A stretch of DNA of 64,000 bases from Candidatus Poribacteria bacterium. Lineage in GTDB: Bacteria; Poribacteria; WGA-4E; WGA-3G. The translations under genes were made by a program, and so were the position numbers. The stretch's first letter is position 1. The number at the start of each line of letters is the position of its first letter. The notes beneath the pieces are model-generated. The model saw only the letters and a program-made list of their open reading frames with translations. It was not told the DNA's origin and ran no database searches. Below, piece by piece: positions 4,813 to 57,673 of this stretch. The DNA lies in contig JAJEDN010000104.1 in the NCBI GenBank assembly GCA_022821495.1, positions 14,043 through 78,042 of the forward strand, written 5' to 3'.

Positions 4813-4853
4813 CCAAATCGACGCTCAATAAGAATAGGATCACTACACGGGAA

Positions 4854-15700: not shown

Positions 15701-15900
15701 CCCCCCTTATCAGGGGGGAGAATGTGGCTTTTTTCACAGAGGAGCGTGAGGTTAGATTGGCGGCAGTAGTGCTGGAGAAGGTCTTGAAATGCAGCGCGGA
15801 CAGTGCCCTCATTTTCTATCCCATGCTGCGCATATTTTTCGAGCTCAGCATAGTAGTTTTTGATGGGCTTGTGTGTCGGTTTGATAGTGAAATCTGGCAT
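12778..15900 (-). CDS. single-chain restriction-modification-type enzyme: N-terminal PD-ExK motif, N6-adenine methyltransferase and a type ISP-like C-terminal domain
   Basis: IQPDGE...GYWEAKD (D-x14-E-x-K), DPFVGTGNF (motif I), VIGNPPYN (motif IV), and C-terminal RSALEWVVDQYRVKTDKRSGIVNDPN. No helicase domain. Confidence 0.75.
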   Translation of the reverse strand: MPDFTIKPTHKPIKNYYAELEKYAQHGIENEGTVRAAFQDLLQHYCRQSNLTLLCEKSHILPPDKGGKGGYRRIQPDGEVVDTYGLPHGYWEAKDTQDDLHTEADKKFAVGYPLKNIVIQSPTHALLYQHGRLQLDLDITEPRNLIQVLQTFFTYQAENISAWHTAVAEFKDTVPELGDKLAALIETERQNNPHFQEAFASFHQQCQASINPNLSVAAVEEMLIQHLLTERIFRTVFDNPDFTRRNIIAREIETVIDVLTERTLNRSEFLRPLEPFYAAIEQTAGTITDFSQKQGFLNTVYEQFFQGFSVKVADTHGIVYTPQPIVDFMVKSVAHLLQTEFDRSLSDSGVHIIDPFVGTGNFIVRIMQALDPISLERKYTADPPELQCNEVMLLPYYIASMNIEQEFYTATHQYMPYEGICLVDTFEMIEDQQMSLLTPANTARVEKQKETEMFVVIGNPPYNMGQVNENDNNKNRKYKTMDQRVADTYAKDSKATLRTALYDPYIKSIRWGLDRIDDEGVVAFVTNNSFLSGVAFDGMRKHLAEDCDAIYILDLGGNARKGLKVSDANVFGIRVGVSINLFVKKKENRSELPRIFYHRTHDLWDKQQKFDFLDEYQHTGNVPWQPIQPDTRHTWLTEGLHTEFETFMPMGTKEAKALKDAAKNVIFQTYSTGILTGRDAWIYNFNRNVLTENISKMIQTYNTEVTRWGQRTDRNVNLDDFVIPDDKEIKWSRNLKRELKQNKIAEYAEHKVRNSLYRPFTKSNLFFDSIMNDEVSLFRFIFPTPETEMENRVIWLKVGRDWPMFGLMVNQLADRLPQGGSQCFPFYIYDADGTNRRENITDWALTEFRTHYNDDTITKWDIFHCNYGLLHHPDYREKYEANLKRDLPHIPTPLAPLDRGVAADFWGFAEAGARLADLHVTYESQPEYDKLKFVQTPDVPLNWRVEKMKLSRDKTSLIYNDFLTLSGIPPKVFDYRLGTRSALEWVVDQYRVKTDKRSGIVNDPNRTDDPQYIVRLIGKVITVSLETVDIIENLPALEIR
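13198..13229 (+). repeat. R1 core embedded in-frame in the RM gene (antisense to the CDS)
   Basis: CCCCCCTGTCAAGGGGGGCAAGGGGGGTT compared with the intergenic core TCCCCCTGATAAGGGGGATTTAGGGGGTT. Encodes PTPLAPLDRGV. Confidence 0.6.
15690..15721 (-). repeat. R1 core embedded in-frame in the RM gene (sense to the CDS)
   Basis: The minus strand reads CCCCCCTGATAAGGGGGGTAAGGGGGGTT. Encodes LPPDKGGKGGY, 6 aa before the PD of the nuclease motif. Confidence 0.6.
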
Positions 15901-24268: not shown

Positions 24269-24442
24269 AATGGAGAACGGATATACGCAATAGAACACTA
24301 AAGCATCAACACACCTGAACGATCCGCAAGGAAATATAAAAAAATGGAGAACGGATATACGCAATGAGACTCAAAAGCATCAACACACCTGAACGATCCG
24401 CAAGGAAATACAAAAAACCGAACCGCAAGGTATTATAAAAAA
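24269..24442 (+). repeat. R2 element, about 2.3 tandem units of 74 bp
   Basis: Unit is AATGGAGAACGGATATACGCAA...CCGCAAGGAAATATAAAAA. The final partial unit ends CCGAACCGCAAGGTATTATAAAAAA and overlaps the stop codon of the minus-strand gene at 24433. Confidence 0.7.
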
Positions 24443-28379: not shown

Positions 28380-28599
28380 TTATCTTCACTCCAACGTATC
28401 AAAGCAGCCCGATTCTCACGTAAGTTACCTTCAAATAACGAAATCAGGACGATACAGCGTGTCTTATTAATTCTAAACTTTACTATAAATACCCCTGATA
28501 ACGAAATGACTACCTATTGACTTAAACGCATTATATATCAAATACGGAAAAAAAACAACTCTCATTTCAATAGTGCTTCCTAAGAACGCCACTTTTTCC

Positions 28600-28628
28600 T
28601 TGACACACATTGGTAACCTTGCTAACAT
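28600..28628 (+). promoter_or_regulatory. sigma70-like promoter TTGACA-17-TAACAT
   Basis: Hexamers at 28600-28605 and 28623-28628, 20 bp upstream of the ATG at 28649. Confidence 0.45.
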
Positions 28629-28648
28629 GAAAAATCGGGAGATCCAAA

Positions 28649-29707
28649 ATGAACGACACCAAATATCGCGTAGCCATCATCGGGTGTGGACGGATGGGAC
28701 AGAACTATGCGGAAGCATACACGACCTATCCTGATACAGAAATTGTCGCAATCGTTGATGCGAATACCCAACGACAAAATGTCCTCGGCGCGCGCTTCGG
28801 CGTTGATGCACTCTACTCAGATGTAGACGCACTATTACGCGACATTGTGCCAGATATCGCAGTCGTTGTCACGCCCACGAAGTATATGAAAGATGCCGTA
28901 ATTGCCTGTGCCGAAGCCGGTGTCAAAGGGATTTCAACGGAGAAACCGATCGCCGCACGCCTTGAAGATGCCGACGCAATGGTTGACGCGTGTGCAGAAC
29001 GCGACGTGGTGTTCGCTGGCGGCAACCTACAACGCGCAATGAACGAAGTACAAGAAACTGCATCCCGACTCCACAATGGTGAATTTGGGGATATCCGAGG
29101 GGCAAGCGTTCATGGGTTCGGTGGCGAGATTTCCGGCGGTGGATGCCAACACATCTCAGTCCTACGACTTTTCACAAACACTGAAGTTGAAGAAATCGTC
29201 GCATACGGAAGCCCACCTGAAGCATTAAACGCAGAAACCGACGAAGGCTTAATCATCAATGGATCCTTCCGACTCACAAACGGATTGGTATGTAGCGTCT
29301 TCGGGACACCCACACCGTGCCGCGGCGTAGATGTCTGGACAGACGAATGCCTCGTCCGCTGGGACTGGAACCCGCCAGAGATTTTCAGAGGCTACGACAA
29401 GCAGGGCAATCGTATCCGCCTCGAACCCAATTACAATCCGTACCCCTGGAGCGAATTTAGTTACCTCACCGGCTCAATCCGCTCCTTTTTGGCAGCTGTT
29501 GACAGGAACGGACACCCATGGATTACTGGCGCGGATCTCCGACAAGCATTAGAGGTGGCAATCGCCGCGAAACTCTCCGCAACTCGAAACAGTGTTCCCG
29601 TCAAATTACCTCTGGAGGACAGATCCTTAGCACTCTACCCACGTCCCTACCGATGGCTCGGTGGCGACGCAACCGGCAAACCTCAAAGTATCGAAGAAGC
29701 AAAGTAG
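28649..29707 (+). CDS. Gfo/Idh/MocA family oxidoreductase
   Basis: N-terminal Rossmann motif RVAIIGCGRMG and the EKP motif. Confidence 0.8.
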   Translation: MNDTKYRVAIIGCGRMGQNYAEAYTTYPDTEIVAIVDANTQRQNVLGARFGVDALYSDVDALLRDIVPDIAVVVTPTKYMKDAVIACAEAGVKGISTEKPIAARLEDADAMVDACAERDVVFAGGNLQRAMNEVQETASRLHNGEFGDIRGASVHGFGGEISGGGCQHISVLRLFTNTEVEEIVAYGSPPEALNAETDEGLIINGSFRLTNGLVCSVFGTPTPCRGVDVWTDECLVRWDWNPPEIFRGYDKQGNRIRLEPNYNPYPWSEFSYLTGSIRSFLAAVDRNGHPWITGADLRQALEVAIAAKLSATRNSVPVKLPLEDRSLALYPRPYRWLGGDATGKPQSIEEAK

Positions 29708-29764
29708 TAGGCACGCGCCGTCGTGCCGTCCACAGAGTAGTAGGCACGCGCCGCGTGCCGCAAC
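29703..29764 (+). repeat. REP-like doublet (GTAG head plus GGCACGCG..CGTGCC palindrome)
   Basis: AGTAGTAGGCACGCGCCG(TC)GTGCCG occurs twice in direct orientation. The first copy overlaps the stop codon at 29705-29707. Confidence 0.65.
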
Positions 29765-29777
29765 AGGAGTACCAACG

Positions 29778-30566
29778 ATGAACGAAGATCAGAAATACCT
29801 ATTCGATTTGACCGGATTCCTCATCGTCGAAAACGCGCTGACAGACGAAGAAGTCGCACAATGCAACGCCGCTATTGACCATCACATTGAAGCACTCAGA
29901 GAACGTGATAGCTCACTGGCTGGCGGTTCACCCGCGCTTGTCGGCACAGCACACCGGATGGACATGGGCGGCATGCTCGCATGGGAGAAACCGTGGTGCG
30001 AACCGTTCCGAAATCTCCTCGTGCATCCGAATGTTAAACCCTACCTTGTAGAGGTCTTAGGCAAACAATATCGACTCGACCACGGTCCCGGCTTAATCGC
30101 CATGGAAAACGGAACAGAAGGCGGAACCTTACACGGTGGCGGGATTGAGCGTCCCAATTTCTCCGAAGCCTATTTCTTCAAACACGGAAGAATCTATACA
30201 GGTTTGACTGTCGTCGAATACATGCTCGCCGATGAAGGCCCCGGCGATGGCGGCTTAGCGATCATACCCGGCAGCCACAAGGCAAATCTTCCGTGTCCGA
30301 GCAATATGAAGCGATATGAGCAATATCAAAATCTGGTGCTCGAAGTCAACGCCAAAGCCGGCGATGCGGTGATTTTCACTGAAACCTTGACACACGGCAC
30401 ACTCCCCTGGAAAGGTGACCATCAACGCCGTGCCTTACTCTACAAGTTCAGTCCTGGATTCCAAGCGTACAGCGCAGGCGCGCACCAGATCGCATACCCA
30501 GATTACATTGAGGACATGTCCCCCGAACAACGAGAAGTCATGGAAGCACCCCATATCCGGCACTAA
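29778..30566 (+). CDS. phytanoyl-CoA dioxygenase (PhyH) family protein
   Basis: Motifs YLFDLTGFLIVENAL, IIPGSHK and ETLTHG. The ATG at 29778 follows the repeat; the ORF-track extension from 29661 runs through the repeat. Confidence 0.7.
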   Translation: MNEDQKYLFDLTGFLIVENALTDEEVAQCNAAIDHHIEALRERDSSLAGGSPALVGTAHRMDMGGMLAWEKPWCEPFRNLLVHPNVKPYLVEVLGKQYRLDHGPGLIAMENGTEGGTLHGGGIERPNFSEAYFFKHGRIYTGLTVVEYMLADEGPGDGGLAIIPGSHKANLPCPSNMKRYEQYQNLVLEVNAKAGDAVIFTETLTHGTLPWKGDHQRRALLYKFSPGFQAYSAGAHQIAYPDYIEDMSPEQREVMEAPHIRH

Positions 30567-30574
30567 ACCCGTTC

Positions 30575-30704
30575 AGAACTTACGCAGTACCTCTCAAAGT
30601 CCCCCTGATAAGGGGGATTTAGGGGGTTAGGATTTAGGGCTGTTTCGTAGAAATCTCGGCACCTCTTAAAGTCCCCCTGATAAGGGAGATTTAGGGGCTT
30701 AAAA
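30575..30704 (+). repeat. R1 element with two cores and only the left TIR
   Basis: AGAACTTACGCA is followed by two AAAGTCCCCCTGATAAGGG(G/A)GATTTAGGGG cores. Confidence 0.65.
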
Positions 30705-30717
30705 TAAGGAGAAACCC

Positions 30718-31665
30718 GTGTCAAATCTACGCGTTGCTGTTATCGGCTGCGGCGGCAGAGGTCGCGGCCACATGAAAATCCTCTCACAATTTGACGATAC
30801 TGATCTCGTCGCTGTCTGCGATCCTGTTGAAGCCGCACGAAATGAGGCAGCGGACAGATTCAACGTCTCGAATCGCTACGAAAGCATTGATGCGTTATTG
30901 GACAGTGAAACCTTAGATGCCATTTTCGTTGCGACACCCGCACACCTCAACGGTGAGGCGGCACTCCCGTGCTTTGAACGCGGTGTTCACACGCTCTTAG
31001 AGAAACCACCCGGCATGAGCGTTTCAGAAACAGTCGCCTTGCGTACTGCCGCAGAACGGACAGGCGCGAAAGGGATGGTGGGTTGGAACCGTCGCTTCCA
31101 TCCGATCATCGTTGAAGCGAAACGGCAAGTCACCGCACGCGGTCCCGTCACACAAATCGTTGGCGAATTCCATAAGAGTATTACCCGATTGGCGCAATCC
31201 GGCAAATTTCCTGAACATCTGATGGATAACATGTTTCTGGAAACACCGATTCACGCGCTTGATGCAATCCGTGCCATCGCTGAAGCAGACGTCCAAGAAG
31301 TGCATAGCGTCGTCCAGCGAACAATCTCAGATTACAAAGACGTCCACGCTGCGCTCATTCTGTTTGACAACGGCTGCGTCGCCCAACACATTGCCAACTA
31401 CACAACAAATGCCCGCCTCGAACGCTACGAGATTCACGGGAGAGATATCTCGGCTTACCTCGAAGGTGTCTCCCAAGGCACCGTTTTCTGTGATGGAACA
31501 CAGCACAAACTCACTGAAGCAGGCACCGGCGGCACCGTTGAGCAGAACAGGTACTTCTTAGATTGCGTCAAATCCGACACCCCCGTTTCGTTCCCAGCAG
31601 CGAACCTTGACGAAGCCGTCAAAACCATGCAACTCGCCGAAGATATTCTAAACGGACTGCGTTGA
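30718..31665 (+). CDS. Gfo/Idh/MocA family oxidoreductase
   Basis: RVAVIGCGGRGRGH and the EKP motif. GTG start preceded by AAGGAG. Confidence 0.8.
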   Translation: MSNLRVAVIGCGGRGRGHMKILSQFDDTDLVAVCDPVEAARNEAADRFNVSNRYESIDALLDSETLDAIFVATPAHLNGEAALPCFERGVHTLLEKPPGMSVSETVALRTAAERTGAKGMVGWNRRFHPIIVEAKRQVTARGPVTQIVGEFHKSITRLAQSGKFPEHLMDNMFLETPIHALDAIRAIAEADVQEVHSVVQRTISDYKDVHAALILFDNGCVAQHIANYTTNARLERYEIHGRDISAYLEGVSQGTVFCDGTQHKLTEAGTGGTVEQNRYFLDCVKSDTPVSFPAANLDEAVKTMQLAEDILNGLR

Positions 31666-31718
31666 GAATATCCGCGTCCTGTACAAGATCGGAAAGGATA
31701 GATGGGATAGCAGGAACT

Positions 31719-31815
31719 GATTGGAAGGAGGGAAGGATGGAGGAATGGAAGAAGCGTTGCTACACAATCTTCCAATCTTCCAGTCTTCCAATTCCCTACT
31801 TCCAGTCTTCCAATC
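31719..31815. repeat. heptamer-based imperfect inverted repeat (TCTTCCA-type units)
   Basis: Left arm GATTGGAAGGAGGGAAGGATGGAGGAATGGAAGA. Right arm is tandem TCTTCCA-like heptamers. Confidence 0.55.
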
Positions 31816-31879
31816 CCAGACGCAAACGAATAGATTCTGTGTAAGCCCTAAAATTGAAAATTGCTTGAAAGGAAAACCA

Positions 31880-32704
31880 ATGCCAACATTAGAAGAACGA
31901 TTTGAAGCCTATAAAACCGATGGCTTTGCAATTTTTGAAAAAGTCTTTGACGAACCCCAAATGCAAAGTTGGCGCGAGAAACACGCAGAACTCTCCGCAG
32001 CCAACGATGGACAGACATGGTTCGGCAATACCCTTGAACTGGCACCCGAATTGATGTGGCCCGCTGTCTCACACCCGACACTCCTTGAATTCATAGAAAA
32101 GGTGATGGGTCCCTTCGTGCAATTAGACAACCTCACACTCGCTGCGTTCCCACCCATGGAAAAGGAAAAAGCGGAGGGCAGGGTCTCTGGATGGCACCGC
32201 GACCGATGGGCACACGTTCCGTATACCGACGCGTATCACCGTCCGAACGCCATCAATGCCATCTCCTATCTGCAAGATTTAACACACGAATTCGGACCCC
32301 TGCGCGTCATTGTCGGATCACACCGAAAACCGATTACCATGGAAGATTCACAGCGCGGCGTGCCACATCCCGATGAAACACTCATCCACATGGGCGCCGG
32401 CGATGTCGTCATCACACACAACGGACTTATCCACTCCGGCACACCGAACACCTCTGCGGAATTACGTTATTTTTTCAGTATTTACTATAACCTGACGTGG
32501 CTGAAACACACCGATCACCATACGGGACCGCACACCCAAAAGTTGTTGGAAACCGCAAAAACAGCCAATAACCATCAACACATGCGGCTCCTCGGTGTCG
32601 ATGAGCAACTCCAGCCGCGCTGCAACTCAGGCTTCCTCCAATCGGACGAAGAACGCTGGAAAGAGTGGGCAACCGCTGACCAAGAGGCAATCAAGGAGGC
32701 GTAA
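31880..32704 (+). CDS. phytanoyl-CoA dioxygenase (PhyH) family protein
   Basis: Motifs GFAIFEKVF, GWHRD, GSHR and HSGTPN. The internal ATG at 31880 is preferred over the ORF-track start at 31721. Confidence 0.7.
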   Translation: MPTLEERFEAYKTDGFAIFEKVFDEPQMQSWREKHAELSAANDGQTWFGNTLELAPELMWPAVSHPTLLEFIEKVMGPFVQLDNLTLAAFPPMEKEKAEGRVSGWHRDRWAHVPYTDAYHRPNAINAISYLQDLTHEFGPLRVIVGSHRKPITMEDSQRGVPHPDETLIHMGAGDVVITHNGLIHSGTPNTSAELRYFFSIYYNLTWLKHTDHHTGPHTQKLLETAKTANNHQHMRLLGVDEQLQPRCNSGFLQSDEERWKEWATADQEAIKEA

Positions 32705-32707
32705 CCG

Positions 32708-33451
32708 ATGGCAAACCCTGTAGTACCCGCAACACTCAACGTTGATTTGGATTACGAATTGCAACAAGAGGTCAATTTCTTCCTCAACTGGGGCTATCTT
32801 ATCGTTGATAACGCCGCAACCCCGGAACAGATTGAATCGTTACGCGCGGCACTCGATGAAAGCTACGAACGCAGAGACAAAAGCCAATTCATCGGGGAAC
32901 TCCTTGAGGAAGATGACCGGTTCGCGTTTCTGTTAGATAATCCACCGGTCATGAAACGGATGGAAGCCATATTAGGCACCTGTGTCCAACTCCACAGCAC
33001 AACAGCACGCATCACGGAACCCGGAACACCCGATCAACATTGGCACCGTGACGGCCCCTGGCCCGTCGCACCGAACGGCACACCTTACGGGAGCCTCCCT
33101 GCACAGATTAACTGCGGTTATTACCTCGACGAAGTTACCGACGAGAACGGTCCCACGGTTGTCCAGCCCGGTAGTCATAGAGCACCCTTCCGTCCGCCCC
33201 CCACGCCTGTCGAATTGCCCGATGAAAAACGGGTACTCGTCTCCCCCGGACAAGCGGTTATGTTCGACGGATGGACGTGGCACCGAGGCGCAGCAAATAA
33301 CTCCTCAGAACGCCGGCGCGTCTGTCTGATGTGCTATCAAAACGCCTGGATGAAATCTCGCGAACCCTTTGATGGACCGCGCGTCACAAAACTCCGAGAA
33401 GAAGGCACACCCCAGCAACAACTCTTACTCGGCGCAATCCCAAAATGGTAA
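32708..33451 (+). CDS. phytanoyl-CoA dioxygenase (PhyH) family protein
   Basis: Motifs WGYLIVDNA, HWHRDG, PGSHR and WHRGAAN. Confidence 0.7.
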   Translation: MANPVVPATLNVDLDYELQQEVNFFLNWGYLIVDNAATPEQIESLRAALDESYERRDKSQFIGELLEEDDRFAFLLDNPPVMKRMEAILGTCVQLHSTTARITEPGTPDQHWHRDGPWPVAPNGTPYGSLPAQINCGYYLDEVTDENGPTVVQPGSHRAPFRPPPTPVELPDEKRVLVSPGQAVMFDGWTWHRGAANNSSERRRVCLMCYQNAWMKSREPFDGPRVTKLREEGTPQQQLLLGAIPKW

Positions 33452-33452
33452 C

Positions 33453-33511
33453 GTAGGGGCGAGGTCGCCTCGCCCAACACCAAACACACGTAGCGGCGAG
33501 GTCGCCTCGCC
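33453..33511 (+). repeat. REP-like doublet (GTAG head plus GGCGAGGTCGCCTCGCC palindrome)
   Basis: GTAGGGGCGAGGTCGCCTCGCCC and GTAGCGGCGAGGTCGCCTCGCCC in direct orientation. Confidence 0.7.
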
Positions 33512-33538
33512 CGATTTCAAACTAATGGAGAACGCTAT

Positions 33539-34993
33539 ATGAATCTTGCCTACATCGTCATCGACACACTCCGCTACGACTACATCGGTGCAAACGGGAA
33601 CGATTGGATAGAGACACCGAATATCGATCGGTTCGCTGCCAAGGCTTGGGCTTACGATCACGCCTTCTGTGCCAGCTTCCCAACTATCCCGTACCGAACC
33701 GATGTCATCACCGGACAATACGGCGCGCCCTTCCACGCATGGAAACCGCTCCGTCACGAACGCCAAACCCTACCGTGGACACTCGCACAAAGCGGCTATG
33801 CAACACAACTCATCCACGACACACCGCATCTCGTCAACGGCGGACATAACTTCGACTGGCCCTTCCACGCATGGACATTCGTCCGCGGCGCAGAGGTCGA
33901 TCGAGATTGGATTATGGATACCGACCCCTGGCCCGATAACTGGACCCGCCAATCGCTTTTTGATGCCATCAATGACAAAGCCGCCGAATCCGGGATGCTC
34001 CGCAGCTACGCACGCGCAAACAGAAATCGCAAGAAACCGGAGGACTGGAACTGCGCAAAACTTTTTAATACTGCCGCCCAATTCCTCAAAGATAACGCCA
34101 AACGGGATAACTTCTTCCTCTGGATAGACTGCTTCGATCCACACGAACCTTGGGACTCACCCCCTGAGTTCATGAAAAAATACGACAAGCGACCCGGCTA
34201 TGACGGGCGCGTCGATCCACGGAGCCTCGGCGCACGCGGCAACGCGGAACTCTCAGACGAAGCGAAACAACACATTAAAGACCAATACGCCGCGAAAACG
34301 ACATGGATGGATCACTGCTTCGGACAGTTCCTTGAGGCACTTGAATCCACTGGACTCGACAAAAACACCGCTGTCATCTTCACCGCTGACCACGGCACAA
34401 ACGTCGGTGAAAGAGGTAGATTTGGCAAAGGACAACCCGTCCGTGAACAAGAAGCACACGTCCCGCTTTTCATCCGCCTCCCCGAAGGCGACACCGGACG
34501 GAGCAACGTCATCGTTCAACCCCAGGATTTCTTCCCAACGATTCTCAATATCTTGGGCGAAGCGCGCCCTGACGGACTTGAGGGACACGACATCTTAACG
34601 CCTGCCCGTGCAGGAAACGCCGGTGAAAGAGAACTTGCGCTCTCAGGCGGAAGTATCGAACGCTGGCAGCAAGCATCACAAAACGAAAACGCGATCCTCT
34701 TCACCGCATTCAGCCAAGAATGGAGCTTAGAAGTCGCCGCAAAACCTGAAAATTCAAAACTCGTCCGACTCGGTGATTTAGAATACGCCCAGGACCAGCA
34801 CCCAGACCTCGTCGCGAAACTCCATGCCGCTGCCGTCGATGAAATCGAACGCCGCGGCACTGATCCTGCATTGATGGCGTGGCTCCGAAGCGGCGGCGAA
34901 GACACGTTCCCCGCCGATGCCAATTACTGGGACGGTTTCCCCGGACCCGCAGGCTACCGCCCCTATTTCGGTAAACTCTATACTGGGGAATAA
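33539..34993 (+). CDS. sulfatase-like hydrolase (alkaline phosphatase superfamily) with Thr at the formylglycine position
   Basis: N-terminal IVIDTLRYD. The signature T-I-P-Y-R-T-D-V-I-T-G (33683-33715) matches the spacing of C/S-x-P-x-R-x3-[LMI]-T-G. Also FTADHG. No signal peptide. Confidence 0.65.
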   Translation: MNLAYIVIDTLRYDYIGANGNDWIETPNIDRFAAKAWAYDHAFCASFPTIPYRTDVITGQYGAPFHAWKPLRHERQTLPWTLAQSGYATQLIHDTPHLVNGGHNFDWPFHAWTFVRGAEVDRDWIMDTDPWPDNWTRQSLFDAINDKAAESGMLRSYARANRNRKKPEDWNCAKLFNTAAQFLKDNAKRDNFFLWIDCFDPHEPWDSPPEFMKKYDKRPGYDGRVDPRSLGARGNAELSDEAKQHIKDQYAAKTTWMDHCFGQFLEALESTGLDKNTAVIFTADHGTNVGERGRFGKGQPVREQEAHVPLFIRLPEGDTGRSNVIVQPQDFFPTILNILGEARPDGLEGHDILTPARAGNAGERELALSGGSIERWQQASQNENAILFTAFSQEWSLEVAAKPENSKLVRLGDLEYAQDQHPDLVAKLHAAAVDEIERRGTDPALMAWLRSGGEDTFPADANYWDGFPGPAGYRPYFGKLYTGE

Positions 34994-35030
34994 TTTTTAG
35001 TAATGTCGGACGGGTTCGTAACCCCCAAAA

Positions 35031-35123
35031 ATAAACAGACCTCTTTGTAGCATAACCTGTTAGGTTGTGCCAGTGTGAATGCCTGTCATAGGTATTCACA
35101 CTGTTTGAGAGTACCCAATTAAT
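35031..35123 (+). repeat. R6 element, copy 1
   Basis: About 93 bp: CAGACCTCTTTGTAGCATAACCTGTTAGGTTGTGCCAGTGTGAATGCC...CCCAATTAAT. Near-identical to 36967-37061. Confidence 0.7.
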
Positions 35124-35125
35124 TT

Positions 35126-35263
35126 AGGACTTACGCGCCGCTTCTTAAAGTCCCCCTGATAAGGCGGTGTTTTTGCTGGGGTGTTTCTTAGGGGGTTAAA
35201 AATATGGAAAATATCGTTTTCTGCGTCTAAATGTCCAATATTTCCTCAATTTGCGTAAGTCCT
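35126..35263 (+). repeat. R1 MITE with an R3 insert inside the core hairpin
   Basis: TIRs at 35126-35137 and 35252-35263. The core CCCCCTGATAAGG is interrupted by CGGTGTTTTTGCTGGGGTGTTTCTT (35165-35189) before AGGGGGTTAAAAA. Confidence 0.7.
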
Positions 35264-35308
35264 GAATAATTATAAACATCACCGGGATAGATTGCGAAGT
35301 TGTAAAAA

Positions 35309-36715
35309 TTATTCCATGCTCCAGAGCCGTTCTTGGGCCCACTTGAAGCGGTTAGGAGCGACATCCTCCAGCTTCGCGTAGCCAATCATTTTTCTCGGGT
35401 AAGCAATCCAATAGTAAGCGCACACTTCGGCCGCGTTTTCAAACAACCATTTGTCATACCATTGATCGATATCGTAGGGTGCGACCCTGCCGAATTCGGC
35501 AAGATCTTTTTCCCGAGCCTCTGCGAAGGCCTGGCCTTCAGGAGTGTTTTCCCATTCCACAACACCCAGATCACTACCGTCAACAGAAACCAAGGCATGC
35601 TGACGGGCGTGTGCTATCTCATGGGCGAGTGCTTGCAGTAATTTTCCTGCCGGATCAGCAGATTGACTATGAAGGTCGGTATTGAGTGTAATCATGCCGT
35701 CGTAGTCGGAATACGTCGCACTGGCTTTGCCCTTTAGCCGCAAGGAACCCTCATAGTACAATAAGTCATACACCAGAAGGGTGTTTTCCAATATGGGTCG
35801 TATCTCGTCAGGCCAGCGTTGGCCGATATAGATAAGACCGGGATCCTTTGGACGATCACGGAATTTCGGCGCATCACCGTTTGCGAGGATCGTCTGGCGA
35901 TCTCTGTAGATGATGACCTCCTTGGGTTCAAAGTATTCCTTCTCTATGCGCAGATGAAGTTCATCTGTCGCGATGTTTGAGAAAACATAATGACCGTTGC
36001 GGTCAGTAACCACACGTTCACCGGATCGTGGACCTGTCATAATGGTGACAGTGACACCGGCAACCGGATGTTGGAGCAAAGCACACACCACACCGACAAA
36101 ATCATTCGGATTTTTTCGAACGGGTAAGCTGTATTTGCCCCATGAAACCCATCCTTCAGAGTAAAGGATGACCTCAAGTAAGTTTCCTTCAGACGCGTTA
36201 GTATGAGTGAAGAAATGTTTCGCAAAATCTTCCGTTCCCACAATATACTTGCAAATGAAGGAGTCTTGGTAGGGCATAGCATCCCCGCTCTGCAAATCAG
36301 AGCCATGCGGCTTCATACGGTACCGGCTTGTCATCTCTATTTGGCGAGAATTATCGGTGCTCGGTCTGGTCGTAAAAAAGATACTCGGTCGAGCATCTTC
36401 GCCATCAGAAATAACCACCGGAACCTCTTCCAAAAACATTACCTGTGTATAGAGAGTGGTTCCGATTTCTATTGTCCCTACAACCGGTTCTGTTAGGTCG
36501 ATATCTCGGTAGTACACAATCTCTGCAGGTGGTGTGGGTGCTGTATATTCCGGTTCTGGTACCTCGGGTACCTTTATTTCACCCATAGTTACCGGCGTTT
36601 CTGATCCTTTGTCATCGGGTATAACCGGCTTCACCACAGTCATACCTTCATCACATCCGAGGAATAGGGATGTTAGTCCCAAGAACAAGGCTGCCAACAT
36701 AATTATTTTTTTCAT
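35309..36715 (-). CDS. lipoprotein, putative zinc metallopeptidase with a carboxypeptidase-regulatory-like domain
   Basis: Lipobox LFLGC after a signal peptide. HEIAH (HExxH) lies near the C-terminus. GVTVTI...TDRNGHYVF is a beta-sandwich motif. Confidence 0.5.
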   Translation of the reverse strand: MKKIIMLAALFLGLTSLFLGCDEGMTVVKPVIPDDKGSETPVTMGEIKVPEVPEPEYTAPTPPAEIVYYRDIDLTEPVVGTIEIGTTLYTQVMFLEEVPVVISDGEDARPSIFFTTRPSTDNSRQIEMTSRYRMKPHGSDLQSGDAMPYQDSFICKYIVGTEDFAKHFFTHTNASEGNLLEVILYSEGWVSWGKYSLPVRKNPNDFVGVVCALLQHPVAGVTVTIMTGPRSGERVVTDRNGHYVFSNIATDELHLRIEKEYFEPKEVIIYRDRQTILANGDAPKFRDRPKDPGLIYIGQRWPDEIRPILENTLLVYDLLYYEGSLRLKGKASATYSDYDGMITLNTDLHSQSADPAGKLLQALAHEIAHARQHALVSVDGSDLGVVEWENTPEGQAFAEAREKDLAEFGRVAPYDIDQWYDKWLFENAAEVCAYYWIAYPRKMIGYAKLEDVAPNRFKWAQERLWSME

Positions 36716-36966
36716 TTCGCGTTTCCTTGTTGTATAAATATTTAGGAGATAGCTAGACAGACTCTAGCTGTTTTGTCAATTTTATAGATAACATGAGTTT
36801 GAGAATAAACCGGAGTCAACCGTTAACCAATGGAGCGAATGTTTGCTATCCGCTTCGTACCGCGCCTCGCGACCCATCGCAAGACAATTGACACACTTAT
36901 TCAGTTATAATAGGTCAATTATTGTCTTTATTCAATCAAAAAAACAAAAACTCTATACCTAACCAT

Positions 36967-37061
36967 AAATAAGCAGACCTCTTTGTAGCATAACCTGTTA
37001 GGTTGTGCCAGTCTGAATGCCTGTTATAGGCATTCAGACTGTTTGAGAGTGCCCAATTAAT
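36967..37061 (+). repeat. R6 element, copy 2
   Basis: Direct repeat of 35031-35123, with paired G/C changes that keep the long stem intact. Confidence 0.7.
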
Positions 37062-37209
37062 CATAGATTTTACTATAAATGATCTTGGCTACCAAAAGAA
37101 GGTGTGTAAATATGTTTATCAAGTCTTAGAATTAAAAACGGGGTCTGGCACAAACTCACAGTTTATGCTATAGTGGAAGACCATGTGTTAAAAGGTAAAA
37201 GATACAGAC

Positions 37210-37238
37210 TTGACAAAGACTCCCGATTTTGATAGCAT
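37210..37238 (+). promoter_or_regulatory. sigma70-like promoter TTGACA-17-TAGCAT upstream of the antitoxin
   Basis: Hexamers at 37210-37215 and 37233-37238. Confidence 0.4.
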
Positions 37239-37293
37239 ATTAACATTGAACAAGACATGCAACCCAGAAAAGATAACCCTTTCAAGGAGTTCT

Positions 37294-37527
37294 ATGATGA
37301 AGAATGCAAAATTGCAAAAGCAAGCTATGATGTTAATCGAGCGACTCCCAAACAAAAAACTCAAAGCTGCTATAGATTATATGACTTATCTCTATGACAA
37401 GGAAGCATGGGATGCGACACATGAACTGACCAGTAACGCGGAAATCGTGAAAAGCTTAGAACGTGCAGAAGCCGATGAAAAAGCCGGCAGACTCAAAAGT
37501 TGGGCTGATGTTAAGCGAGACGTTTGA
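37294..37527 (+). CDS. type II antitoxin (partner of the RelE/ParE toxin)
   Basis: 77-aa ORF with AAGGAG 5 nt upstream. Overlaps the toxin start. Confidence 0.55.
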   Translation: MMKNAKLQKQAMMLIERLPNKKLKAAIDYMTYLYDKEAWDATHELTSNAEIVKSLERAEADEKAGRLKSWADVKRDV

Positions 37528-37783
37528 ACTCGAATTCACGGATGAGGCAATTGCTGATTACGGTAGACTTGATGCTAATATGGAGCGGCGAGTCAACACT
37601 GCACTTAACACGTTAGTCAACAATCCGTTATTTGGACGTAATATAACCAAATTGCACGGACAGTACGCCGGATTATACCGTTATCGTGTTGGACGCTATA
37701 GGATTATCTATAGGATAGACAAGCAACACCGTAAATGTATCATCAGAGGGATCCAAGCGCGAGGAAAAGCGTATAACCCATAA
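37508..37783 (+). CDS. RelE/ParE family type II toxin
   Basis: KLHGQYAGLYRYRVGRYRIIYRID...IRGIQARGKAY. Confidence 0.8.
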   Translation: MLSETFELEFTDEAIADYGRLDANMERRVNTALNTLVNNPLFGRNITKLHGQYAGLYRYRVGRYRIIYRIDKQHRKCIIRGIQARGKAYNP

Positions 37784-37841
37784 TTCGGAACTATACGATT
37801 GTTCAAATCCATAAACTTCCGATCTCACATAGGAGAAAACC

Positions 37842-38891
37842 ATGCCACAGACATACAAAGCCTGTCTCGTCGGATGCGGACGGATGGGCGCGACCATTGA
37901 CGATGAAGTCGCAGGTCGACCGGATAGCTTTATCTGGCAACCCTTCTCACACGCTGCAGCCGCAGTCGCCTGTGAGCGAACTGACCTCGTCGCTGTCTCC
38001 GATGTCTTCGAGGAAAAAGCCGAAACCATCAGAAAACGTTACGGAGCCGAGCGCGCCTATACAGATTACCAAGAGATGATCGAAAAAGAGAAACCCGACA
38101 TCATCTGCCTCGCCACGCGTCCGGGTCCACACGCCGATATTACCGTCTTTGCCGCCGAAAACGGCGTTAAGGGCATCTACTGCGAAAAACCGCTCTGCTG
38201 CTCTATGGAAGAAGCAGACATCATGGTAGATGCTGTCGAAAAGCACGGTGTCAAATTCAACTACGGCACACAGCGCCGCTATATGCCGATCTACCGCAAG
38301 GTACGAGAACTCGTTGATGCCGGCGAAATCGGCAATGTCCAGTGTACCATCGCGCAGTACGGTGCCAGCTCCGCGCTCTGGGGACTCACCCACGCCGCCG
38401 ATATGCTCCTCTTCCTCGCAGGCGACCCAGAAGTAGATTTCGTGCAAGGCACGGTTGTTTGTGACGATTCAGATTGGGACGGGAACCGCCTCAACACCGA
38501 TCCCGCCATCACCAGCGGTTATATCCGTTACGCCAACGGTGTACACGGCTATAATACGGCAGGGACTGGACCCGAATATGAGGTTTGCGGCACGGGTGGC
38601 AAAATCCGTGTACAAAACAACAGCAGAGAAATCCAATTCCGAAAAAAGGATGGCACCTTCTTTGAAGAAGTCCCGTTCCCTGAGACCTCCCGTGCGACAG
38701 GCACCGTGATGGGGATCACAGATGTCGCTGAGGCACTCGACGAAGACCGTGAGACAAAGGGACCCATCCATCTCGCACGCCGGAGCCAAGAGACACTCAT
38801 GGGTATCATCGAATCGCACCGACTCGACGGCAAACGCGTCTCACTCCCGATGGAAAATCGAGGTCTCTACGTCGGTGGAAAAAGTTGGTAA
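37842..38891 (+). CDS. Gfo/Idh/MocA family oxidoreductase
   Basis: KACLVGCGRMG and the EKP motif. Confidence 0.8.
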   Translation: MPQTYKACLVGCGRMGATIDDEVAGRPDSFIWQPFSHAAAAVACERTDLVAVSDVFEEKAETIRKRYGAERAYTDYQEMIEKEKPDIICLATRPGPHADITVFAAENGVKGIYCEKPLCCSMEEADIMVDAVEKHGVKFNYGTQRRYMPIYRKVRELVDAGEIGNVQCTIAQYGASSALWGLTHAADMLLFLAGDPEVDFVQGTVVCDDSDWDGNRLNTDPAITSGYIRYANGVHGYNTAGTGPEYEVCGTGGKIRVQNNSREIQFRKKDGTFFEEVPFPETSRATGTVMGITDVAEALDEDRETKGPIHLARRSQETLMGIIESHRLDGKRVSLPMENRGLYVGGKSW

Positions 38892-38916
38892 AATTTCGCA
38901 CATCCGGCACCCAACC

Positions 38917-39028
38917 GCAGGCGAGGTGTTTTTGCTAGGGGTATTTGCTTGGGTATTTCTGCGGATTTCCCCTAGTAACCTCGCCCCAAAGTTTGGTCCC
39001 TACTGCAGGCGAGGTTTGTAACCTCGCC
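38917..39028 (+). repeat. REP-like doublet; the first copy carries a 50-nt R3-type insert in its loop
   Basis: The intact copy at 39005-39028 is GCAGGCGAGG-TTTGT-AACCTCGCC. The copy at 38917-38985 has the same arms separated by TGTTTTTGCTAGGGGTATTTGCTTGGGTATTTCTGCGG.... Confidence 0.7.
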
Positions 39029-39037
39029 CAACAAAAT

Positions 39038-40024
39038 ATGAACTTAGAAACCCAAATCCAGCAATTCCGCGAGACCTTTTACAACGTCAAATCCGAAGTC
39101 CAAAAACGCATCGTCGGTCAAGACGCTATCATTGAAGGTGTGCTTTTCTGTCTACTCGCCAACGGACACGCACTCCTCGAAGGTATCCCCGGCTTAGGCA
39201 AAACCCAACTCATCTACACACTCAGCGAAGCACTTGATCTCGCTTACAAGCGCATCCAGTTCACACCGGATATGATGCCTTCAGATGTCACAGGCACAAC
39301 GCTCCTCGTAGAAGACGAACACGGCGGAAGACAACTCGAATTCCAACAGGGACCCATTTTCGCACAACTCATCCTCGCAGATGAGATTAACCGTGCCACA
39401 CCGCGCACCCAATCCGCGCTCCTTGAAGCGATGCAAGAACGCACCGTCACCATCGGACGTACCAGCCATAAGTTAGAAGAACCGTTTTGCGTCTTAGCAA
39501 CACAAAACCCGCTGGAGATGGAAGGCACGTACCCGCTCCCAGAGGCACAACTCGATCGGTTCCTCTTCAAACTCCTCATCGACTTCCCGAACGAAGACGA
39601 GATCGTCGAAATCCTACGCCGCACCACATCCGGTGCCGACATCACTATCGACAAGGTTACAGATACCGAAACGCTCAACGAGATGCGCCGACTCGTGCCG
39701 CAAGTCCCCATCGCCGAGCATGTTGAACGCCACATCATCCGACTCGTCCGAGCGACGCACCCGGACGCCGAAGACGCCCCCGATATTGTGAAACAATATG
39801 TCCACCTCGGCGCAGGGATCCGAAGCGTCCAAGCCATCGCCCTCACCGCCAAAATCAACGCCGTCCTCAACGAACGCTACAACGTCGCCTTCTCGGACAT
39901 CGATGCTGTGTTGCTCCCCGCACTCCGCCACCGCATCCTCCTCAACTTCGAGGGGCAAGGCGAAGGCATAGAACCCGACACCATCGTCAACGAAGTCCGC
40001 AACACCATAACCCCAACATCATAG
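39038..40024 (+). CDS. MoxR-like AAA+ ATPase
   Basis: Walker A GIPGLGKT, Walker B ILADEINR and the SALLEAMQE motif. The ATG at 39038 is preferred over the ORF-track start at 38945. Confidence 0.85.
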   Translation: MNLETQIQQFRETFYNVKSEVQKRIVGQDAIIEGVLFCLLANGHALLEGIPGLGKTQLIYTLSEALDLAYKRIQFTPDMMPSDVTGTTLLVEDEHGGRQLEFQQGPIFAQLILADEINRATPRTQSALLEAMQERTVTIGRTSHKLEEPFCVLATQNPLEMEGTYPLPEAQLDRFLFKLLIDFPNEDEIVEILRRTTSGADITIDKVTDTETLNEMRRLVPQVPIAEHVERHIIRLVRATHPDAEDAPDIVKQYVHLGAGIRSVQAIALTAKINAVLNERYNVAFSDIDAVLLPALRHRILLNFEGQGEGIEPDTIVNEVRNTITPTS

Positions 40025-40083
40025 CTTCGTCCCATTCGTCATTTGTTTCTCAAAAGCATTTTGGTTCGCAGTTCTCATCTAAT

Positions 40084-40220
40084 GCCCCCCTGATAAGGGG
40101 GGTTAGGGGGGTTAGGGGCGTTATCTTCTTATACTAAAATCGGAAAATATGTTTACACTTCGCCCCCTCGTAGGGAGTTTTGCTGGAGTGTTTCTTCAAG
40201 GGGCACCCAGCCCTACGAGC
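40084..40220 (+). repeat. composite repeat: R1 core, then an R5 segment, then a hairpin with an R3 insert
   Basis: CCCCCCTGATAAGGGGGGTTAGGGGGGTTAGGGG. TTATACTAAAATCGGAAAATATG resembles 42688-42722. CTCGTAGGG-[R3]-CCCTACGAG lies at 40167-40219. Confidence 0.6.
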
Positions 40221-40259
40221 TATGAAACTGAACAGTCCTAAGCAGAATAAATTAACCTC

Positions 40260-40288
40260 TTGACATCCGCTTGAACCTACGTTATAAT
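40260..40288 (+). promoter_or_regulatory. consensus sigma70 promoter TTGACA-17-TATAAT upstream of fic
   Basis: Hexamers at 40260-40265 and 40283-40288. Confidence 0.55.
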
Positions 40289-42489: not shown

Positions 42490-42930
42490 TTGGGTTATGA
42501 CCGGTTCGGTTAGGAAACCGAACCATAGGTGTCAATTTAGCGATTTTCATGGTATTTCCGGGGACAGTCTCTATAGATGCCGCCCCTACGGGGCTAAAGA
42601 CAAACACATTTCTACACAGATACCGTCGCTACGCGACTGAAGAGGGTTTTGAAGTCTTCAAGGTTTCCGCGTAGAATCCGGTTCGGTTTTATAGTAAAAT
42701 CCGAAAATAAATGAACACTTTTACGAAGATAACCCCCTAGGGGAAACACCCCAGCAAAAACACCCCCTTATCAGGGGGGAATAAGATAGGAATCGATTTG
42801 ATTGGATGTGTCTCAATAATTATGGGCTTTACTATAAACCGAACCTACCGGACCTGGGGGTGAAACGGTTATTTTTTCTTAAATTGACGCTTATGGTTCG
42901 GTTAGGAAACCGAACCTACCGGGCCTGGCG
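42490..42930. repeat. patchwork of small repeats in a 620-bp non-coding gap
   Basis: GGTTCGGTTAGGAAACCGAACC hairpin at about 42503 and about 42895. An R5 segment at 42688-42722. A reverse-oriented R1 core with R3 insert at 42731-42780. Confidence 0.55.
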
Positions 42931-45435: not shown

Positions 45436-45504
45436 TGATGGACTCCTGCGTGAATTTGATAATTAAAAAACTGTTGAACCCAAAACAGAGCTTGCAACAA
45501 TGGT

Positions 45505-45597
45505 GCAAGGCTTTTGCTTGGGCGTTTCTTCAGATACACGGAGATGAATATGAAATCCCAGATCCACCCAAACGAACCGCAAGGTATAATTAAAAAA
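45505..45597 (+). repeat. R2 element (with R3 module) ending at the first conserved trpB codon
   Basis: GGCTTTTGCTTGGGCGTTTCTTCAGATACACGG...AACGAACCGCAAGGTATAATTAAAAAA. Confidence 0.65.
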
Positions 45598-46782
45598 CTT
45601 CCTGACGCAACCGGGCATTTCGGACAATTCGGGGGTAGATATGTTCCCGAAACCCTGATGCCCGCGCTCTTAGAACTCGAAGACGCATACAACGCACTCA
45701 AAGATAACGCCGACTTCCAAGAAGAATTCCGGTACTACCTCCGCGAATACGTCGGACGCCCCAACCCACTCTATTACGCCGAACGTCTGACAGAAACCCT
45801 CGGCGGCGCGAAGATATATCTCAAACGGGAAGATCTCAACCATACAGGCGCACATAAAATCAACAGTGCGATCGGACAAATCCTTCTCGCACGCTGGATG
45901 GGCAAAAAACGCATCATCGCCGAAACCGGTGCAGGACAACACGGCGTGGCAACAGCCACCGTCGCAGCAAAATTCGACATGGAGTGCGAAGTCTATATGG
46001 GTGAAGAAGACATAGAACGGCAAGCACTTAATGTTTTCCGTATGCAGTTGATGGGAACGAAAGTCGTGCCGGTGAACTCCGGTTCGCGGACCCTCAAAGA
46101 CGCGATCAACGCCTGTTTCCGAGACTGGGTCACGAATGTCCGTACCACCTACCTACTGCTCGGTTCGGTTGTCGGCGCGCACCCTTATCCGATGATCGTC
46201 CGAGACTTCCAAGCCGTCATCGGTGAAGAAGCGAGAGCACAGATTTTAGAACAAGAAGGCGCGTTGCCGGATTGTGTCGTCGCTTGTGTCGGCGGTGGCA
46301 GCAATTCGCTCGGTATGTTCTATCCGTTCTATGCCGATGAATCCGTGCGAATGATCGGCGTAGAAGCCGCCGGTGAGAGCATCCGTAGCGGACGACACGC
46401 CGCACCGCTTACTGCAGGCAGCGTCGGTGTCTTTCACGGTGCTAAGTGCTATCTATTGCAAGAAGACGATGGGCAGATAACGCCAGCGCACTCCATCTCT
46501 GCCGGGTTAGATTATCCGGGTGTCGGCCCCGAACACAGTTATTACCGTGAAACCGGTAGAGCCGAATATGTCCCTGTTACCGATGCAGAAGCGGTGGAAG
46601 GGTTCCAGTTGTTATCAGAAACAGAGGGTATCATCCCCGCATTAGAATCCGCACACGCCATCGCTTACCTGCGTGAACTTGCACCGAAACTCGGTAAAGA
46701 TAAAGTCGTCGTTGTCTGTCTCTCAGGCAGAGGCGACAAAGATGTCTATACCATCGCAAAAGAATTAGGCATCAGCCTCTAA
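45550..46782 (+). CDS. trpB: tryptophan synthase beta chain
   Basis: Motifs [23 protein letters not shown] and GGGSN. ATG at 45550 with GGAG 6 nt upstream. The first 16 codons lie inside the R2 repeat. Confidence 0.9.
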
Positions 46783-46793
46783 CGCACTTCTGT

Positions 46794-46903
46794 CTTAAAG
46801 TCCCCCTGATAAGGGGCGGTGAATGCCTATAAGGCATTCATACCCGGTGAATGCCCATAAGGCATTCATACCGTTGATTCTGATTCTTTAGGGGGTTAAA
46901 AAT
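46794..46903 (+). repeat. R1 core interrupted by an R4 insert
   Basis: CTTAAAGTCCCCCTGATAAGGGG-[two GAATGCC-N5-GGCATTC hairpins]-TTAGGGGGTTAAAAA. Confidence 0.7.
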
Positions 46904-57584: not shown

Positions 57585-57673
57585 GTAGCCTGCAACAACG
57601 GCGCAGGCGGATATACGCAAAGGCACGTGAATGTCCTAACCACCCTGACCGAACCGCAAGGAATAATTAAAAA
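57585..57673 (+). repeat. R2 element ending exactly at the ATG at 57674
   Basis: GTAGCCTGCAACAACGGCGCAGGCGGATATACGCAAAGGCACGTGAATG...CCGAACCGCAAGGAATAATTAAAAA. Confidence 0.65.

Follow-up and report, generated by a model that had tools for sequence, protein, structure and literature searches.

Very small nested repeats in Poribacteria: R3 and R4 as separately inserted modules in REP hairpins, MITE cores and 5' leaders

To our knowledge, detailed accounts of mobile repeats shorter than ~40 nt come from essentially a single bacterial lineage, the Nostocaceae with their small dispersed repeats (SDRs), and the way in which these move has been an open question since 2008. Here we describe two families of similar size, R3 and R4, starting from a 64,000 nt stretch of contig JAJEDN010000104.1 of a Candidatus Poribacteria bacterium (the whole stretch is hereafter called the window), in which positions 35126-35263 had been flagged as a repeat interrupted by a smaller one. 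The two families are discrete micro-elements that inserted individually, and their nests, which reach four levels deep, result from repeated insertion. Poribacteria is the second bacterial group, after some cyanobacteria, with such near-minimal nested mobile DNA. Our favoured reading, to which we give a probability of about 0.5, is that R3 and R4 belong to a Poribacteria guild of very small non-autonomous repeats that are copied into repetitive extragenic palindromic (REP) sequences, into the cores of MITEs (miniature inverted-repeat transposable elements), into a leader element termed R2, and into themselves.

The SDR1-8 repeats of Nostoc punctiforme and its relatives (Elhai et al. 2008, Genome Res 18:1484; see also PMC5861425 and PMC4390886) are reportedly 21-27 nt long, highly conserved and dispersed in diverse contexts, and they lie in mini-transposons, in tandem heptamers and in themselves; some of them form a stem-loop and some do not, and their insertion is described as precise and site-preferring, e.g. 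SDR5 within HIP1. R3 and R4 measure 23 and 36 nt and are found in MITEs, REPs and themselves, R4 also in tandem (TAAATCC)n heptamers. The phylum is a different one, and the two systems are likened by behaviour. Unlike in Nostoc the main hosts here are REPs headed by GTAG, and the replication-strand bias of R4 speaks for DNA as the intermediate rather than RNA. According to PMC5861425, SDR-like repeats were not found beyond Nostocaceae, and our literature searches found no description of the Poribacteria repeats. The same behaviour in a second, unrelated phylum means that the phenomenon is no peculiarity of cyanobacteria. Further, Poribacteria offers better material, with many complete long-read chromosomes, two families of contrasting properties and clean junctions, which makes the mechanism testable.

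The hosts of R3 and R4 resemble those known from REPs and REP doublets forming hairpins (REPINs) with their Y1 enzymes, the REP-associated tyrosine transposases (RAYT or TnpAREP; PMC3116915, PMC3733652, PMC8266576), being hairpins of 20-35 nt whose GTAG(G) head is unpaired. TnpAREP cuts at CT or CA beside REPs, guided by GTAG, and the cut end is joined to any strand with a 3'-OH (PMC8266576), and REPs can sit within other palindromes (Di Nocera et al., PMC3733652). In an arrangement that recalls those systems a related genome carries a Y1 gene flanked by inverted REP doublets; as in REPs, R4 is hairpin-based, shows compensatory stem changes and occurs in clusters. Unlike REPs, R3 is neither palindromic nor tagged, and R4 starts with CGGG, has no GTAG tag and ends in a 9-nt tail; these 23-36-nt modules break REP stems and loops instead of lying beside them, and no RAYT is linked to them. 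With IS200/IS605 elements and their palindrome-associated derivatives R4 shares the lack of target duplication, a fixed orientation after CC, a replication-strand bias and a preference for single-stranded or structured DNA. The ends of those elements hold two different subterminal hairpins and their derivatives are usually >100 nt, whereas R4 has one hairpin in 36 nt and R3 none, and the window has tnpB only. Enterobacterial bacterial interspersed mosaic elements (BIMEs) are also mosaics of REP hairpins and short conserved non-palindromic motifs, and R3 often lies beside a REP head like a BIME linker, but the BIME motifs lie between REPs, not in their stems or loops, and they neither nest in themselves nor occur in dozens of unrelated hosts. 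Rickettsia palindromic elements (100-150 nt) are found as in-frame gene insertions, as are the cores of R1, the repeat within the flagged stretch, in a restriction-modification gene; R1, however, is ~30 nt and was seen here in one gene only.

Evidence for insertion

The flagged stretch (35126-35263, +) is an ordinary MITE of 138 bp bounded by terminal inverted repeats (AGGACTTACGC / GCGTAAGTCCT), as seen on alignment with its sister copies, and the R1 inside it has been secondarily invaded by R3. In the same alignment the R1 module CCCCCTGATAAGGCGG ... AGGGGGTTAAAA (35149-35199, +) is broken by the R3 micro-element GTTTTTGCTGGGGTGTTTCTT (35169-35189, +), which stands in place of ATTT between the two G-runs of R1 and whose boundaries were taken from an information profile of 124 copies. 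The preliminary description of this DNA had reported one split point in R1 for R3 and R4 alike, and all the sequences and coordinates it cited are present in the window. We confirmed that the point is common to four interruptions: two by R3, the second at 42740-42761 (-) in the R1 core of another MITE shell (TATAGTAAA...TTTACTATAAA), of which a near-identical composite is found in another genome (locus L100), and two by arrays of R4, at 46817-46886 (+) and 12570-12675 (-). End-to-end alignment of full MITE copies revealed L099 as empty at this point, L196 with one R4 and L139 with two, and in L046, a MITE of the flagged family, R3 is located after the second G-run of R1. The family is found in at least five states which differ solely by small internal modules.

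The R3 core TTTTGCTGGGGTGTTTCTT has six matches in the window at <=3 mismatches, with 0.02 expected, and our census comprises 152 copies (<=2 mismatches) from 118 genome loci and the window. The element is ~23 nt long (21 nt in the flagged copy, about 23-25 nt by the profile); in the 124 copies with differing flanks, the high information content is confined to (R)GGG(T)-GTTTTTGCTKGGGYGTTTCTT-CA and falls to background outside. The copies fall into ~64 flank clusters, unrelated beyond a G-run, and with G at position -2 in 110/124 copies and at -4 in 96/124 the 5' G-run is the robust rule of R3 placement. Among 80 matches listed for species-representative genomes, the exact R3 19-mer was found in 35 or more different Poribacteria genomes, among them several complete chromosomes from long reads; two only of the matches listed were outside Poribacteria, in line with chance. 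The window accordingly comes from a sponge-associated poribacterium. An assembly artefact was rejected as the origin of these structures, the same architectures being found in complete long-read chromosomes and independent assemblies. A viral link of R3 was likewise rejected, as its eight IMG/VR matches were seven chance copies in coding sequence (two families) and one ordinary REP-hosted copy.

R3 is hosted by the R2 leader (GGAGGG-R3-GATATACGG), by GTAG-headed REPs, where it enters the 5' arm directly after the head (GGTAGG-R3-CGGTTTCCTAACCG), by the loop of the GTAGGAGCGAG...CTCGC hairpin, by R1, by a hairpin module (GATGCACTTCGCATCTGGGG-R3-CAAGTACGCCGC) and by the '...ATGTTTATAG' REP family. 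It is also nested in R3, in both orientations; at L038 an R4-like hairpin lies within R3 within R2, and at L056 R3 lies in a small hairpin in R3 in R2. Clean insertions were seen at GGAGT^TCCC (20 nt), GGGGT^TGGG (22 nt) and TAGGT^TGGG, and in R2, REPs and the ATGTTTATAG family the 23-nt unit substitutes for the dinucleotide CG, TT or TG, while in GTAGGAGCGAG hairpins the loop is swapped for R3. Between empty and filled forms 0-4 target nt are lost, and target duplication was never seen. Since the G-rich left flank is already there in the empty forms, it is a target preference of R3; and since the empty forms are complete palindromes which the filled forms break, insertion is the derived state. 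A single case runs in reverse: at L008 R3 has lost by deletion what lay between its two GGGG runs, which leaves GGGGGGTTTCTT.

R4 was collected by a metagenome scan with GAATGCC-N5-GGCATTCATAC, which yielded >120 loci and ~150 copies from sponge metagenomes. These loci have a mean GC content of 43%, and ~20 of them encode proteins 70-94% identical to those of Poribacteria loci. The conserved span of 36 nt consists of CGGG, the 7-bp hairpin GAATGCC-N5-GGCATTC, ATAC and the tail CGTTGATTT, and the hairpin folds at -7 kcal/mol (z = -3.1). The perfect hairpin has four copies in the window, in the two arrays within R1. Both arrays had been taken for pairs of hairpins, which holds for 46817-46886, where two GATTC tails come after two hairpin units (H-H-T-T); the array at 12570-12675 has three of each (H-H-H-T-T-T), its third unit carrying two compensatory base-pair changes (GAAGCCC/GGGCTTC). 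Hairpin and tail counts are equal in 23/27 R4 arrays. The order expected under tandem duplication is H-T-H-T, unlike that of the window arrays, and from H-H-T-T it follows that new units entered between the resident hairpin and its tail, at ATAC(C)^.

The hosts of R4 are the loops of several hairpins, namely GTAGGAGCGACC-R4-TCCCGGTCGC, with a clean insertion at the junction of 5' arm and loop, GGGAACTCC-R4-GATTCCC, GGCACGCTCC-R4-GTCGTGCC and the related CCGAATACCATAC-R4-GCGTATTCGG, together with tandem (TAAATCC)n heptamers, sites directly after GTAGG, and R1, where R4 forms a subfamily of its own with loop CATAA and tail GATTC. In all there are 55 distinct flank pairs and ~12 host types. The GTAGGAGCGACC REP family was found 47 times empty and 34 times carrying one to four R4 units, with the outer flanks shared. 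R4 is clean at GCGACC^TCCC, without target duplication, and its left flank is enriched for (A/T)CC, with C at -6 and -5 before CGGG in 64/126 and 66/126 copies, a weak information content.

The preliminary description had both modules sitting precisely in hairpin loops and suggested a mobilisation mechanism that recognises such loops. For R4 this stands in part, as a stem of >=4 bp within 8 nt encloses 58% of copies versus 30% of controls, and the preference of R4 for stem-loop junctions of GTAG-headed REP hairpins, with insertion after (A/T)CC, is real. Tested with one representative per flank cluster (64 contexts), R3 shows at most a modest loop preference in the per-cluster stem and minimum free energy (MFE) tests: 36% are enclosed within 15 nt by a perfect stem of >=5 bp, versus 22% of nearby controls (p=0.02), and MFE classification placed 34% in a hairpin loop versus 28% of mock insertions, i.e. 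no loop preference. A hairpin ends exactly at the R3 junction in 38% of contexts versus 28% of GG-ending control sites, which is not significant (p=0.11), and with this we rejected the idea of R3 as a terminator maker that always follows the 3' arm of a hairpin. The flank-to-flank folding energy of R3 did not differ from that of permuted flanks, a weak control. The hosts, too, depart from the loop rule. The best fold of R1 has a AAGTCCCCCT/AGGGGGATTT stem and the loop GATA, and therefore its split point is in or at the 3' arm, outside the loop; in many REPs R3 sits in the 5' arm after GTAGG. Loop recognition may thus apply in part to R4 and is not a rule common to both families.

R4 and R3 also differ in structure and strand. 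R3 itself has an MFE of 0, with no hairpin and no self-complementarity, and its orientation is unbiased relative to GC skew (80:72). It occurs in both orientations relative to genes; between co-directional genes it leans to the sense direction (40:18), a lean that is weak per independent context (18:11). R4, written as CGGG-hairpin-ATAC-tail, lies on the G<C strand in 62/76 loci (p=2e-8), or in 54/68 (p=1e-6) after overlapping loci were merged and the elements masked, and relative to transcription it is unbiased (12:12 between co-directional genes). Filled GTAGGAGCGACC REPs are split 16:5 between the strands and empty ones 12:17 (Fisher p=0.02), and hence the strand bias of R4 is not inherited from its host. 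As the GC skew of the window is negative throughout, whatever the gene orientation, skew here tracks replication.

The two families bloom in different lineages. No R3 copy was found in 701 kb of R4-selected loci and hardly any R4 tail in 895 kb of R3-selected loci, while the lineage of the window carries both; such lineage-confined blooms argue for parasites over a conserved functional motif. The case for insertion is built on sharply bounded elements in many unrelated hosts, on hosts known both empty and filled, on the lack of target duplication and on these blooms. The earlier claim that nesting arises by insertion is upheld for R3 and R4 as separate, recurrent modules, apart from the one deletion derivative at L008.

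Routes of insertion and rival explanations

For R4 we suggest a replication-coupled single-strand insertion by a Y1-type enzyme provided in trans, a proposal that we regard as having about even odds. R4 would integrate as single-stranded DNA during replication, at a point 3' of (A/T)CC and preferably at an exposed stem-loop junction, by means of an HUH/Y1 protein of the IS200/IS605 or RAYT type, and repeated entry at the ATAC(C)^ of a resident R4 would lead to hairpin-hairpin-tail-tail arrays. HUH/Y1 transposition had been put forward for both modules. It suits R4, with its conserved hairpin and fixed flanks, its (A/T)CC junction without target duplication, its self-nesting and its strand bias, and it does not suit R3, which has no hairpin, strand bias or loop preference.

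The window encodes no Y1 transposase, as had been stated; its one related gene is tnpB (OrfB_IS605 plus a Cas12f1-like TNB domain; 5939-7165, -), with no tnpA beside it. We searched for Y1 genes by tblastn with IS200 TnpA and E. coli RAYT, approximate queries that serve as leads only, and then with two Y1 proteins that had been found. Locus L065 of a related genome has a tnpA-tnpB pair of the IS605 type. L006, likewise from a related genome, encodes a Y1 transposase of 159 aa (Pfam Y1_Tnp, 1e-27), with inverted doublets of the 'hairpin + ATGTCTATAG' REP family on either side of the gene in a RAYT-like arrangement. This REP family is a host of R3; the flanking repeats are not R3 or R4 themselves.

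Several points weigh against the favoured reading and its enzyme. The search for a RAYT or tnpA that had been recommended earlier gave the REP-flanked gene at L006, the protein of which reaches 28 bits where the NCBIfam cut-off for RAYT is 80, and neither a Y1 nor another candidate gene was seen close to any copy of R3 or R4 in 1.7 Mb. R4 has one hairpin where the ends of IS200/IS605 have two, the four bases at its end do not follow the 'guide' logic of IS608, and some R4 and most R3 copies follow GTAGG or G-runs and not CC. R3 has neither strand bias nor structure, and the Y1 model therefore does not fit it. Many copies lie in amplified composites, so that the independent insertions are far fewer, with ~12 host types for R4. 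It should also be noted that GC skew over 3-15 kb is a mere proxy of replication direction, and that one R4 array of the window obeys the strand rule and the other does not.

The directional junction of R3 after a G-run, its constant 3' end, the small target loss, and the absence of structure and strand bias point to a different route. R3 would be joined directionally to a 3' end just past a G-run or GTAGG head with the loss of 0-4 target bases, and the simplest fit would be the copying of a short template (DNA or RNA) primed by G-run microhomology, which we infer more weakly than the route of R4. That R3 spreads by a route new to bacterial mobile DNA, e.g. telomerase-like or target-primed copying onto G-run 3' ends, is a speculation we consider unlikely; if true, R3 would be among the smallest mobile elements known, and a single general pathway would be at work in Poribacteria and in the Nostoc SDRs.

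The same observations might be read without any dedicated mobility, as modular shuffling in which a few founding entries were multiplied by amplification of composites (MITE, REPIN) and by recombination or gene conversion, the empty forms being partly deletion products. Composites do amplify, since many copies have long outer flanks in common; the distinct subfamily of R1-hosted R4 is consistent with one founding event, and the derivative at L008 is a deletion. We nevertheless doubt this explanation, given R3 in ~64 contexts that are dissimilar beyond the G-run, R4 both in heptamer arrays and in the loops of five or more unrelated hairpins, and empty forms that are symmetric, complete palindromes; further, gene conversion accounts for neither the strand bias of filled versus empty REPs nor the H-H-T-T order. 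Equally doubtful to us is a spread through RNA, where the modules would be transcribed and copied by a reverse transcriptase into nicked DNA in a target-primed manner, as proposed for the Nostoc SDRs, for which Elhai et al. in 2008 reportedly argued for RNA intermediates. The 5' junction of R3 is G-rich and fuzzy, its G/T and the length of its T-run varying, and its 3' end (...CTTCA) is sharper, a pattern as expected from microhomology priming and run-off on a short template, and its 40:18 lean to the sense direction would agree with transcription. That lean is weak when counted per context, however, no Rfam family matches, and no reverse transcriptase gene is linked, although such genes were not looked for; the even 12:12 orientation of R4 to transcription together with its GC-skew bias points to replication rather than RNA.

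Polymerase template switching, whereby at forks stalled by REP hairpins a nascent 3' end finishing in a G-run re-anneals to the G-run ahead of a distant R3, copies it and returns, would explain the G-run directly 5' of R3 (at -2 and -4, as counted above), the position of R3 in or beside hairpin-forming repeats, the loss of 0-4 target bases and the self-nesting at its own GGGG. We find it quite unlikely, as the 3' boundary of R3 is constant without microhomology to the right flank of the host, as switches to a distant locus should be rare and the same boundaries are yet found in ~64 contexts, and as R3 inserted in an inverted R3 has the left flank ACACC. Least credible in our view is that R3 is chiefly a selected functional motif, i.e. 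a T-run terminator or attenuator or a protein-binding site, and not a parasite. The exact 19-mer in at least 35 species-level genomes among the 80 matches listed speaks for such a role, as does R3 being the commonest variant feature of the R2 5' leader, where the hairpin CTTGCAACAATGGTGCAAG and the T-run of R3 are terminator-like at 45491-45520; but hairpins at the R3 junction are not significantly more frequent than at GG-ending controls, R3 is found in both orientations to genes and is absent from R4-rich relatives, and a function leaves its arrival at new sites unexplained.

Turnover of repeats between related genomes

The reading of R3 and R4 as inserted repeats can be followed in orthologous spacers. 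The relatives L121, L122 and L123, whose MoxR proteins are 90-93% identical to that of the window, share with it the gene order GlnD-GFO-PhyH-GFO-PhyH-PhyH-sulfatase-GFO-MoxR-Fic, and in this ten-gene block (window 28380-40270) every spacer differs across the four genomes by gain or loss of small repeats, some spacers being 38 bp in one genome and >400 bp in another. The PhyH-sulfatase spacer is 38 bp in L122, holds two hairpins in the window, and in L121 extends to 429 bp with MITEs and an R2/R3 leader. Between genomes with ~90% identical proteins, MoxR being the yardstick, nearly all intergenic spacers show a turnover of small repeats, which is of relevance to annotation, strain typing and assembly of sponge-symbiont genomes; these repeats can also provide 5' leaders or change them, and they can insert in frame within genes.

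A presence/absence comparison of the kind that had been recommended yielded one clean orthologous pair of empty and filled states for R3. Upstream of MoxR the window has a plain, empty REP hairpin (39005-39028, +), CCCTACTGCAGG-CGA-GGTTTGTAACCTCGCC, and L123 has identical flanks with an R3 nest of ~80 nt after GCAGG; the site carries five plain REPs in L121 and a single plain REP in L124 and L125, so that the outgroups L121 and L124 are plain. Beside the empty hairpin of the window lies the REP hairpin GGCGAGG...AACCTCGCC (38919-38985, +), the loop of which, as described before, is replaced by a 50-nt insert of R3 type; this is a composite nest with the 5' part of R3 followed by a CTAGGGG/CCCCTAG hairpin that encloses an R3 variant. 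The GTAG-headed hairpin CTCGTAGGG...CCCTACGAG (40167-40219, +; related copy at L050) likewise encloses an R3 (40176-40197), placed just after GTAGGG.

At L121 9805-10010, upstream of MoxR, the five REPs are head-to-tail copies of the 32-nt hairpin unit AAATTAACTGCTGGCGAGGTTTCTAACCTCGC, and the window counterpart of this array is the R3-filled REP plus the plain one. At L122 8529-8774 the REP hairpin GGTGCGGTT...AACCGCACC bears in its loop a 36-nt copy of a GCGGCGTACTC...GATGCA module that hosts R3 in other places, and hence there are more small modules of this kind besides R3 and R4.

Host elements and neighbouring features

R2 is a portable element of ~110-130 nt, GTAGCCCGTAAyGnAGTGGAGG...GATATACGG...GAACCGCAAGGaAAATTAAAAA, which usually ends exactly at a start codon and resembles a 5' leader that is mobile and carries a ribosome-binding site. 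Its copies lie in the window at 24269-24442 (tandem), 45480-45600, 52495-52626, 57599-57672 and 58445-58583, and in L121 at 6660-6795 and 2430-2550 (-). Its presence upstream of orthologous genes varies, and one copy in L121 faces the wrong way. As noted in the preliminary description, R2 occurs both with and without R3. R3 lies within the leader upstream of a PALP gene (45510-45531, +) and of a DAO oxidoreductase gene (58472-58493, +), and the R3-free copies are GGAGGG-CG-GATATACGG at 52540-52626 (+; also noted at 52553), GCGCAGG-CG-GATATACGC at 57599-57672 (+), and the leaders at 24269 and 24343. The CTTGCAACAATGGTGCAAG hairpin with the T-run that opens R3 scores intrinsic-terminator-like within the leader, and R3 could make attenuators of upstream hairpins. 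Scans of the R2/R3 leaders for Sigma-70-type promoters gave nothing above shuffles. R2 matches no Rfam family, and an Rfam scan of the window detected a transfer-messenger RNA (tmRNA) and a tRNA only, so that no known RNA family explains the repeats.

The inverted repeats of the flagged MITE were found in five full copies. As to a target-site duplication, if the inverted repeat begins at GGAC, the flanks are TA...TA in 2/5 copies and TA...TG in 3/5. In the window a sister MITE with the same inverted repeats has a duplicated R1 core without R3 (9860-10024, +), another holds a REP hairpin as internal module instead of R1 (175-263, +), and two unbroken R1 cores stand behind one left inverted repeat at 30575-30710 (+), where the orthologous spacer of L123 is 38 bp. 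The R1 core CCCCTGATAAGGGG has 18 strand-hits in the window against 0.33 expected, which correspond to ~10 sites because the core is near-palindromic. R1 cores also lie in frame, at 13182-13235 (+) and 15690-15725 (-), in a Type ISP/IIL restriction-modification gene (open reading frame (ORF) 12778-15900, -), where they encode PPDKGGKGGY and ~9 extra residues (LAPLDRGVAA) not present in the homolog PDB 7lo5.

The flagged MITE is enclosed, together with a 468-aa ORF with a CarboxypepD_reg-like domain, by 99-nt direct repeats of 93% identity (35025-35123 and 36963-37061). The syntenic loci L121-L123 lack the 35025-37061 segment as well as the downstream ParE toxin-antitoxin pair (~37200-37800); their sulfatase-GFO gap is 165-517 bp, and the 517-bp spacer of L121 contains a 76-aa ORF. 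A 22-mer resembling R3 at 3-4 mismatches lies antisense in the PhyH coding sequence of the window (33401-33422, -) and of L123 (7086-7107, -), and is probably a chance resemblance kept by coding constraint.

The genes of the window include sulfatases, PhyH, Gfo/Idh/MocA (GFO) oxidoreductases and MoxR. The tmRNA gene (4851-5204, -; ARAGORN tag ADEELALAA) is ~0.7 kb from the solitary tnpB. At 49578-55439 (+) we found a 1953-aa ORF with domains for UvrA interaction and DNA binding and with four ABC-type segments repeated internally (direct-repeat family D2), which looks like a doubled UvrA-like protein.

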